From positions 1-64,000 of IMG/VR virus record IMGVR_UViG_3300042445_001604: 64,000 nucleotides of DNA. One strand, 5' to 3'. Source of the stretch: a virus. Shown one piece after another: positions 54,312 to 62,008 of this stretch (within the stretch, counting starts at the first letter, position 1; each line of letters opens with the position of its first letter). The position numbers were made by a program, and so were the translations under genes. A model generated the notes under the pieces. It searched no databases. It had not been told where the DNA came from and saw nothing but the letters and a program-made list of their open reading frames with translations.

Positions 54312-54839
54312 TTATGACTTTGATTTCAGCACTTGGTATGAGCCACCGTCGCCGTTCAGTTGGGGCATATACCCGTACCGAGCCAGACGGAAACGGATAC
54401 TCGCGGGCGTTACGCCCAACCGCTTTGCCAGACGATAAATTGTCACGCCCTCGACCGTCCGAGCGTGGTTGAGTAGTCGTGAAAACTCCTCGCCCTCTGC
54501 CCGAAACGCGGGAGATTTTCCGCGCACTTGGGAAGCGAGTGGACGCAATTCACGCAACCGCGCAAGTGTGTCCGCGTTCGGCTCGGTGTAAACGGGCTTC
54601 ATCTTTTCGGCAACGACGGGCGGAAGCGGGATTTCGTCGAACACAATTCCAACGGTGTTTACCGTCGCAATTTGTCGTACTCGTTCCCGCGTAATTCCCG
54701 TTGCTTCGGATATGGACTGTAATGTCCAACCCGCGTTTCGTAGTGCTGTGATGTAATCGTTTCGTTCGTTGATACCTAGCGTTGTGAACTTTTCGTGGAC
54801 TTCGCTAGGCAAGGTTAGGTTTGTTTTGCGAAACCGCAT
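54312..54839 (-). CDS. double helix-turn-helix DNA-binding protein (sigma70 region 4-like first HTH)
   Basis: AGWTLQSISEATGITRERVRQI and GVTIYRLAKRLGVTPASIRFRL; start MRFRK after GAAAGGA. Confidence 0.82.
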   Translation of the reverse strand: MRFRKTNLTLPSEVHEKFTTLGINERNDYITALRNAGWTLQSISEATGITRERVRQIATVNTVGIVFDEIPLPPVVAEKMKPVYTEPNADTLARLRELRPLASQVRGKSPAFRAEGEEFSRLLNHARTVEGVTIYRLAKRLGVTPASIRFRLARYGYMPQLNGDGGSYQVLKSKS

Positions 54840-55790: not shown

Positions 55791-55884
55791 TTCGTTTCCT
55801 TTCTCGTGGCGTAGTTACAGTATACCATTTGGCTACTGCGTTGTCAAGTAAGAAAGGGGCGAGATTTCTCTCGCCCCCGACTTG

Positions 55885-55980
55885 TTAGTCATTCCAAGCG
55901 TGGCCCGGAAACGCTTGCTTCATTTCGCGTTCCCAGCAAGGGAAGCACTTTCCCTCGTCGTTGTGTTCGCAGTTCGTCAT
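55885..55980 (-). CDS. 31 aa Cys/His peptide
   Basis: Hand translation MTNCEHNDEGKCFPCWEREMKQAFPGHAWND; promoter and RBS. Confidence 0.65.
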   Translation of the reverse strand: MTNCEHNDEGKCFPCWEREMKQAFPGHAWND

Positions 55981-56094
55981 TGCGTGTCCTTTCGTTGTGG
56001 TGTACCACCAGTCTACTACATACCTACGACATTGTCAAGTACCGACGGCGCACCCGCGCTGGGGGAAAGTATATGTTTTTTGAGTACGGCGCGA

Positions 56095-56259
56095 AAAAAG
56101 AAACGCGAGAGATTTTTCTCCCGCGTTCCGATTTGTCAAGTTTAGGGTGAGCATTTGTTTCGAGCAGACGCACATACTCAGGTGCGGAGAGCCGTCTGTT
56201 ATGTTGCTAAACTGTTCGGCTCTCTTACAGTTTAGGGTGGTAGCCCACACTTTGGCTAC
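56095..56259 (-). ncRNA. candidate structured (pseudoknotted) non-coding RNA of about 165 nt
   Basis: Own promoter TTGACA(56294)-17-TAGTAT and U-tailed terminator; three stems plus GAGAGC/GCTCTC loop pairing; no RBS-led ORF. Confidence 0.6.
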
Positions 56260-56295
56260 ATCTAAATACTAGCACACGGCAATCCAAATGTCAAG

Positions 56296-56583
56296 TTAGG
56301 ACATTGGTGGTGTCGTCGTCAAGTCGTAGTTTCGGAAACGGACTTCGTGCGCGAACAACATCACTTCGGGATTTACGGTGGAGATAGTCGCAATCTCAAC
56401 TATGTCGCCCTGAACCATATGCTTCACGACTTCCCGTGACAACGCTCGTGCTGGCGCGACAAAAAACTTCCGCCCCTTTTCGTCCGCCATAAAGAATGAA
56501 CCGACGAACCCAATGGTCATTGGATTTCGTAGCACTCGCCCCGCGAGTATGCTGGTCTTTTGGTCTGCTGAGTATTTTGCCAT
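56296..56583 (-). CDS. small protein, possible OB/cold-shock-like fold, leaderless
   Basis: TTGACA-17-TACCGT-6 nt-ATG; GF...KFFV...GDIVEI pattern. Confidence 0.65.
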   Translation of the reverse strand: MAKYSADQKTSILAGRVLRNPMTIGFVGSFFMADEKGRKFFVAPARALSREVVKHMVQGDIVEIATISTVNPEVMLFAHEVRFRNYDLTTTPPMS

Positions 56584-56702
56584 ACCCCGACGGTACAACA
56601 TCACCCGCGCATTGTCAAGCCCCGCGTTACTCAAAAAAACTATACTTTTGATTTCCCGGCCAAAAAAGAAACGGGGGACTTTCGCCCCCCGCCCTTTCCT
56701 TT

Positions 56703-61760: not shown

Positions 61761-62008
61761 TCTGTATTTCCTTTCGTTGAGGGAGAGCCAATCTCGCCCT
61801 ATGTCATTGAGTTTAGCGTATGTCGTTTTGTTTGTCAAGTCCATTCGCAAACTTTCTTTATTGAGTTATGTCGAAAGTCTATCCGCGACCACGGACACGA
61901 AACTCGACCGCGCACGGCGACGGCGAAAAGTATACCTTTTTTGAGCGACCGCACGGCGCGGAAAACGACGAACGCCCTGCCCTTTCGAGCAGAGCGTCCG
62001 CGCGTTGG

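Follow-up and report, generated by a model that had tools for sequence, protein, structure and literature searches.

Why should a slot in a row of small early phage genes be occupied by a promoter and a terminator with no usable gene between them? The question arises at one place in the window, the whole stretch of 64,000 nt that was analysed, which runs from the start of an 83,366-bp IMG/VR viral contig (CheckV completeness ~49%). From ~52 to 78 kb the minus strand of this contig is a row of self-contained units, each built on the plan TTGACA-17-TAnnnT, leader or leaderless ATG, small ORF and GC hairpin terminator. The leaders are of a conserved type (...ACGACGAAAGGA-N6-ATG), while in leaderless units the ATG stands 6-7 nt after the -10 element with no leader; the three units of this kind in Table 1 are likely to give leaderless mRNAs, which are common in Actinobacteria. 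A 19-bp site often ends a unit, after its terminator, and its pattern, CTCAAAAAA-NN-TATACTTT, is found after terminators, in either orientation, at many intergenic places. The unit that concerns us consists of a consensus promoter of the host sigma-A/sigma-70 type and a strong terminator bracketing ~165 nt that hold no usable ORF. Our reading is that this mobile early promoter/terminator cassette has a non-coding cargo, most likely a small structured RNA; it would be a small early RNA of a phage, standing alone in a shuffling cassette of the PeSL-like kind, and we put the probability of this at about 0.38.

The source is a lake-water actinophage. Public runs that hold DNA of the contig are lake-water metagenomes, and the portal protein is nearest to those of actinophages (69% identity to Actinomycetia phage DSL-LC01 and 66% to Microbacterium phage Pumpernickel). 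The phage has a siphovirus-like structural module and encodes a large terminase. A related portal is encoded by more than 570 IMG/VR contigs, and full genomes of the family measure ~125-160 kb, with terminal repeats in one; the two closest relatives, G003 and G001, have portals 92-97% identical to that of this phage. The unit is the same to the letter in contigs of four independent lake runs, so it is a real sequence and not an assembly artefact; the flanks of these copies are just as identical, and the copies are therefore uninformative on selection. A further contig of 46.6 kb with a 67%-identical portal (RFTL01000005.1) is binned in the 1.6-Mb MAG Actinomycetota bacterium WB4_1_1172, which may be a hint of the host lineage or a binning artefact.

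The limits of the unit agree with those given in the preliminary description, which had placed a promoter, a 5' hairpin and a U-tailed terminator here and had seen the whole as occupying a gene slot in the early array; all of these elements are where it put them, and promoter and terminator belong to the same class as those of the neighbours. The -10 element is TG-extended, the -35 element starts 1 nt past the stop codon of the upstream 95-aa gene, and the promoter class is shared with ~38 other minus-strand promoters of the array. The terminator is among the strongest in the array, and the predicted 3' end gives an expected RNA length of ~162-165 nt.

Table 1. Features of the unit, its neighbourhood and the corresponding slots of relatives; positions are those of the window unless another locus (L097, L098) is named.
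Feature	Position	Strand	Details
Promoter	56266..56294	minus	-35 TTGACA 56294-56289; 17-nt spacer; -10 TAGTAT 56271-56266
Predicted +1	G56259	minus	7 nt after -10; predicted from the spacing in leaderless units
5'-terminal hairpin	56240..56259	minus	GTAGCC / 8-nt loop / GGCTAC; -8.2 kcal/mol alone; pair probability ~0.9
Repeat copy 1	56229..56239	minus	CACCCTAAACT; last 7 nt are the 5' strand of stem S1
Stem S1	56235-56227 / 56215-56207	minus	CTAAACTGT / ACAGTTTAG; 9 perfect bp; 11-nt loop AAGAGAGCCGA
Stem S2	56224-56217 / 56194-56187	minus	GAGAGCCG / CGGCTCTC; 8 nt; 5' strand in S1 loop
Third hairpin	56165..56198	minus	CAGAC/GTCTG + GCAC/GTGC, bulge GGCTCTCC; pair probability <=0.03
Repeat copy 2	56149-56139	minus	11 nt, 90 nt from copy 1
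Internal TTGACA	56139-56134	minus	runs on from repeat copy 2; single-stranded stretch before terminator
Intrinsic terminator	56094..56129	minus	13-pair stem 56129-56100, 4-nt loop, U6 tail
19-bp array site	56066..56084	minus	CTCAAAAAACATATACTTT; after the unit's terminator, as after other cassettes
Upstream 95-aa leaderless gene	56296..56583	minus	no terminator of its own; predicted OB fold
Leaderless units	56618, 52958, 52763	minus	ATG 6-7 nt after -10 hexamer
Gene for protein with two sigma-70 region 4-type HTH motifs	54315-54839	minus	Pfam PF04545, E = 8e-7
Leader hairpin of two paralogous early genes	~61800-61770, 59280-59250	minus	AGGGCGAG-ATTGG-CTCTCCCT; directly before SD
Slot occupant in G003	L097 9518-9634	minus	38-aa CxxC/Cys-rich protein cassette
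Slot occupant in G001	L098 8077-8196	plus	39-aa highly acidic protein cassette

Is the unit really without a gene? The sequence agrees with the earlier statement that both the AAAGGA leader and a leaderless ATG gene are absent from it. We scanned the 83-kb contig with a crude script for promoter-to-terminator units that have neither an SD-led nor a leaderless ORF, and among ~45 units this was the only one that lacks a usable ORF. The same scan found no gene-less unit in the relatives' loci or in whole related genomes, a result limited by the small number of promoters of the scanned type in distant relatives. Neighbouring units use leaderless translation, and one frame is open across the whole body of the unit, so that a small protein must be considered, either from a 71-aa GTG frame or as a micro-peptide such as the start-stop ATG-TAG at the 5' end. 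The only ATG near the start, at 56261, stands 4 nt past the -10 element, as against 6-7 nt in the leaderless units, and TAG follows it immediately; no start codon in the unit is preceded by an SD. The 71-aa ORF does run through the terminator, as had been described: it extends over 56035-56250 and, past the terminator, also crosses the 19-bp site and the promoter of the next unit; its final 25 codons consist of terminator, 19-bp site and the spacer that precedes this promoter. In G003 these same non-coding elements yield an identical 'peptide' tail behind a real gene, so that the frame is a chance product of conserved non-coding DNA. Searched against proteins, the 71-aa ORF gave no homologue, no gene is called here in the protein collection, and by our estimate chance leaves one of three frames open over 57 codons in ~18% of cases. 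Taken with the open frame and the leaderless neighbours, these findings make a coding function highly improbable.

The slot that the unit occupies is one where close relatives differ. In alignments with the two closest relatives the 95-aa gene on one side and the downstream region on the other reach 80-90%, and the slot between them does not align. G003 and G001 have cassettes for small proteins in that place (Table 1), while three metagenome contigs (L105-107) have no slot cassette at all and pass straight to terminators and another gene. A census of the slot through the 95-aa gene in IMG/VR and JGI metagenomes found seven loci, and the unit was in none of them. Promoter spacer, body and terminator stem of the unit all differ from the relatives' slot cassettes, and the sequences are alike again only from the T-tract and the 19-bp site onward, where query positions 201-261 are 90% identical to G003; T-tract through 19-bp site is the stretch that is kept where cassettes are swapped. 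Because spacer, body and terminator stem are all different, the unit arrived whole and is no decayed copy of the relatives' genes. The slot is hypervariable, and the unit was exchanged as a whole in the manner of PeSL cassettes. A 31-aa Cys-rich micro-gene (window 55885-55980, minus strand) lies in or next to this variable slot.

PeSL cassettes of T4-type phages combine strong sigma-70-like early promoters and stem-loop terminators with small ORFan genes (Arbiol et al. 2010, PMC2839356). The array described here is likewise dense in promoters and terminators, and its occupants are swapped from one close relative to the next, the breakpoints falling at promoter and terminator. It differs in belonging to a lake actinophage with a siphovirus-like module rather than to a T4-type myovirus, and in having a unit whose cargo is non-coding. 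We therefore say by analogy that the unit works like a PeSL cassette, and do not count it as a member of that class, for which a T4-type phage and encapsidated mini-circles are required.

The mobility of the slot also admits a less functional explanation, one that we regard as almost as likely as a structured RNA. Recombination at promoter and terminator boxes could have left both elements working around an idle stretch of filler, perhaps transcribed into an RNA without a task, as a transient state of a slot with fast turnover. T4-type PeSL cassettes shuffle in exactly this way (PMC2839356), and the different states of the slot in relatives, a 38-aa gene, a 39-aa gene and no cassette, fit such a history. 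So does a possible scar: the 9-mer AACTTGACA that includes the unit's own -35 (56289-56297) recurs before the terminator (56134-56142), 155 nt away, as a recombination joint might leave it. The pair may indeed be such a joint; the evidence is weak, however, given that the same 9-mer is found at 6 of the ~38 promoters. The internal TTGACA within the second copy belongs to a promoter-like match in which the terminator loop serves as '-10'. Bacteriophage genomes are compact, and that this is the sole gene-less unit among ~45 is a further point against idle filler.

The origin of the body itself bears on the same choice. An Rfam search, which the preliminary description had proposed as a check, found no Rfam 15 family, be it of riboswitches, ribozymes, tRNA-like, 6C, Y-RNA-like or other RNAs, at the gathering threshold; with E values up to 10 admitted, the best sub-threshold score was 18.9 bits against a cut-off of 92, and a scan of the unit for tRNA and tmRNA found nothing. 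A blastn search of 50,697 INPHARED phage records with a 901-nt query (55800-56700) gave no match, and exact patterns for four parts of the body found unrelated AT-rich coding matches or none in IMG/VR. Among relatives, blastn of the body found nothing in 50 related phage records, blastn and tblastx revealed no similarity to any cassette in 1.2 Mb of the relatives' loci, and a single-sequence covariance model (R1) found nothing in 47 related records, with a self-control score of 173.9 bits. Bacterial genomes gave only chance-level blastn matches; two samples of 401 genomes each were covered, one from the class and one from the order of the Actinomycetota MAG that contains a related phage contig. 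One identity of 18 nt occurs in these actinobacterial genomes, where by our estimate ~4-5 such identities are expected by chance, and it sits in a conserved coding stretch, presumably of glutamate synthase. By these comparisons the body of the unit is an orphan in all of the collections searched. An orphan body is what a leftover of shuffling would be expected to show, and it also counts against a structured RNA, as does the absence of the unit from the two closest relatives. The lack of residual DNA or translated similarity to any cassette in the 1.2 Mb of relatives, on the other hand, argues against a leftover.

The internal order of the unit argues that its cargo is more than filler. Every element claimed for it is present in the sequence as placed: the 9-bp stem, a complement of its loop (8 nt), the CAGAC/GTCTG and GCAC/GTGC pairs, and the 11-nt direct repeat with copies 90 nt apart (56239-56229 and 56149-56139). 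The complement of the S1 loop, which is the 3' strand of S2, lies 22 nt downstream, and the 11-nt repeat has no more than these two copies in the contig. We counted as an arrangement of the S1/S2 type any perfect stem of 8 bp or more with a loop that finds a perfect complement, 7 nt or longer, no farther than 40 nt downstream. When the 129-nt body was shuffled 20,000 times with its dinucleotides preserved, none of the products contained one; a 9-bp hairpin appeared in 58 of the shuffles and an 11-nt direct repeat in 50. The arrangement in the unit is the sole occurrence on both strands of the 83-kb contig. Related phage DNA (1.16 Mb, or 2.3 Mb on both strands) contains seven, all of them in coding or low-complexity sequence and none in a cassette, and seven in 2.3 Mb corresponds to a chance of ~4e-4 for one given stretch of 129 nt. 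The sequence pattern of the unit is non-random. Hairpin, loop complement and repeat are three independent non-random features within 129 nt, which speaks against a leftover of recombination.

What the RNA would look like is less straightforward. In nested folding the GC-rich 8-bp helix GAGAGCCG/CGGCUCUC has a pair probability of ~1, and the AU-rich 9-bp stem S1 and the third hairpin have probabilities of ~0; the only elements that stay stable across all folds are the 5' hairpin and the terminator. For the 3' domain, which is ambiguous, the computed folds prefer, every time, a hairpin other than the one drawn in the preliminary description. The minimum free energy has a z-score of -2.15 for the body alone and of -4.1 for the whole RNA with its terminator, so that the body alone is modestly structured. 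This modest score, and the position of the proposed helices outside the nested ensemble, count against a structured RNA.

S1 and S2 can by their positions coexist only as an H-type pseudoknot and would otherwise be mutually exclusive. The H-type geometry (S1 of 9 bp, S2 of 7-8 bp, loops of ~2, 1 and 12 nt) spans the stems, and in stem 1, loop 1, stem 2 and loop 3 these dimensions are similar to those of knots of the IBV type. The S2 duplex has an energy of -14.0 kcal/mol, or -11.6 kcal/mol with initiation included. If S1 is imposed and the strands of S2 are kept free, the remainder of the RNA folds at -46.5 kcal/mol, which together with S2 (-11.6) amounts to ~ -58 kcal/mol before any extra knot penalty, as compared with -52.9 kcal/mol for the best nested fold. 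On these energies the knot should be competitive unless the extra cost of closure exceeds ~5 kcal/mol, and we estimate its stability to be about that of the nested fold. Order of synthesis should favour the knot, since S1 is complete before the partner strand of S2 is transcribed. The pseudoknot proposed earlier is plausible as a prediction: it keeps the support of two long helices that are compatible only as a knot, and against it stands the absence of S1 from the nested ensemble. A second knot, between GUG in the loop of the 5' hairpin and CAC just past its stem, is possible and would have only 3 bp.

The suggestion that the second repeat copy competes for the 9-bp stem is borne out in part. 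That copy can pair with the 3' strand of S1 over 7 bp; the helix is AU-rich, closes a loop of 61 nt and is too weak to count at equilibrium. The related idea of a switch finds no footing in such a helix, and nothing downstream depends on the unit's terminator because the next gene has a strong promoter of its own.

Among known systems the nearest actinophage precedent is a non-homologous one. The cluster A mycobacteriophages L5, D29 and StarStuff produce abundant, stable early non-coding RNAs from Pleft, encoded in a 500-bp region at the genome end that is conserved within the cluster, and their expression has been shown (PMC5712189). Both cases concern an actinophage, a strong early promoter, an ORF-less stretch and an RNA that is, or for our unit is presumed to be, stable; the present unit differs as a 165-nt orphan that lies within a cassette array and whose RNA is predicted. 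Homology to the right-end transcript of L5 and D29 was rejected, the search of the 50,697 phage records with 55800-56700 having given no match. Knots of the IBV type are frameshift elements and classical H-type pseudoknots with a long stem 1 (PMC10321173). The knot of our unit is by comparison predicted only, and as there is neither an ORF nor a slippery site a frameshift signal is ruled out.

Exonuclease-resistant knots of the coremin or xrRNA-C kind are defined by a 4-bp hairpin with a YGAD or YGNNAD loop, a spacer of ~10 nt and a second hairpin (PMC10520033, PMC10321173). The unit is like them in being a predicted knot-like RNA, and the ...TAAACT... that it repeats is reminiscent of a stretch of the coremin spacer. 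When the contig was scanned for the pattern, no YGAD or YGNNAD hairpin was found in the unit; its helices are far longer, and we rejected this identity. The unit also recalls the pRNA of phi29 in its size class, its presumed early expression and a hairpin loop complementary to a bulge. That pRNA is an early RNA of ~170 nt in which a hairpin loop is complementary to a bulge loop of the same molecule or of another. The phage described here differs in its large terminase and in its large, repeat-ended genome type, which are not those of phi29-type packaging, and the unit has no Rfam match.

If the unit does encode a small structured RNA, host RNA polymerase would transcribe it early. In the nascent RNA the 5' hairpin and the 9-bp stem would form first, the downstream GC-rich strand would then enter the loop, and the product would be a compact and probably stable RNA that acts in trans. 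An antisense RNA directed at the phage's own early genes was considered and rejected, its complementarity being at chance level: the longest Watson-Crick run with the 26-kb array is 11 nt, and the mode for shuffled queries is 10-11 nt. As the RNA finds no target above chance among these transcripts, we think that it more likely binds or titrates a protein than acts as an antisense regulator. What counts for a structured RNA, then, is that this is the sole gene-less unit, that its promoter and terminator are of the array's class, that its pattern is non-random, and that the energetics of S1 and S2 allow the knot. We consider doubtful the more specific proposal that an H-type pseudoknot (9 + 8 bp) with the 5' hairpin forms a mobile cassette RNA serving as a stable decoy that binds protein, for instance for a host nucleic-acid-sensing defence or an RNase, or as a partner of the OB protein encoded upstream.

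That protein deserves mention in its own right. The 95-aa product has no Pfam match; its structure model (pLDDT 81) matches the OB domains of IF1, SSB and the anticodon-binding part of LysRS in Foldseek at E ~1e-3, and it is predicted to be an OB fold. The gene forms nine 90%-identity clusters in metagenomes. Since it lacks a terminator of its own, its transcript should run through the RNA unit to the unit's terminator, and the unit's sequence would then double as the 3' end of the mRNA for the OB-fold protein. Relatives without the unit keep the gene, and a partnership of the OB-fold protein with the RNA is therefore no more than an idea.

A role in cis is unlikely in our estimate. One version of it concerns a repeated 7-mer. 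CTAA(A)CT occurs in three direct copies and one inverted copy within 170 nt; one abuts the -35 element, and the set includes a palindrome just past the start site. These could be regulator sites, or the unit could be a put-like antitermination RNA or a replication-priming transcript. A put-like RNA makes the transcribing polymerase ignore downstream terminators, and every gene downstream of the unit ends in a terminator that an antiterminating leader might target. The gene for a protein with two HTH motifs of the sigma-70 region 4 type (Table 1), an early product that may be a phage transcription regulator, is 1.5 kb from the unit. Against a cis element, the 7-mer is not enriched elsewhere in the contig, the unit closes with one of the strongest terminators of the array, the next gene is driven by its own promoter, the closest relatives lack the unit, and no antiterminator family of Rfam matches it.

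Least probable of all is an anti-defence RNA that imitates a CRISPR repeat (Racr) or a type III antitoxin (ToxI-like). A stand-alone, promoter-driven RNA with a predicted structure in the early region would suit this role, and a hairpin with a ...CTAAAC tail, like GCAC/GTGC with a ...GAAAC tail, loosely recalls class 1 repeats. A ToxI-like or phage pseudo-ToxI element needs tandem repeats of a whole unit of 34-45 nt, and TRF finds no tandem repeat here, where 11 of 90 nt are repeated; this also speaks against the antitoxin mimic processed at the repeats that the preliminary description had suggested. An RNA anti-CRISPR, as a solitary repeat unit, should closely resemble a CRISPR repeat of the host; no multi-copy, array-like match turned up in the ~800 sampled actinobacterial genomes, a weak negative for a sample drawn by the class and order of the MAG. 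Of the broader claim of an early functional RNA, the self-contained non-coding unit stands, and its three named forms, decoy, antitoxin mimic and switch, have no specific support.

As a single orphan sequence from an uncultured phage the unit is a candidate and not a discovery. If it is real and functional, freshwater actinophages, from which, to our knowledge, hardly any regulatory RNA has been described, pass on RNA genes in the same cassettes by which their tiny early proteins are shuffled. It would also provide a compact pseudoknot, open to design, for tests of RNA stability or of decoy function.

A minor observation concerns two paralogous early genes on the minus strand, with promoters at 61838 and 59315, that share a leader hairpin (Table 1). 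This hairpin includes GGCUCUCC, which could pair with the S1 loop; by our estimate a loop-to-leader match of 7-9 nt is expected by chance over ~2 kb of leaders. The same hairpin contains the 8-mer GGCTCTCC, which is present in the RNA unit too.
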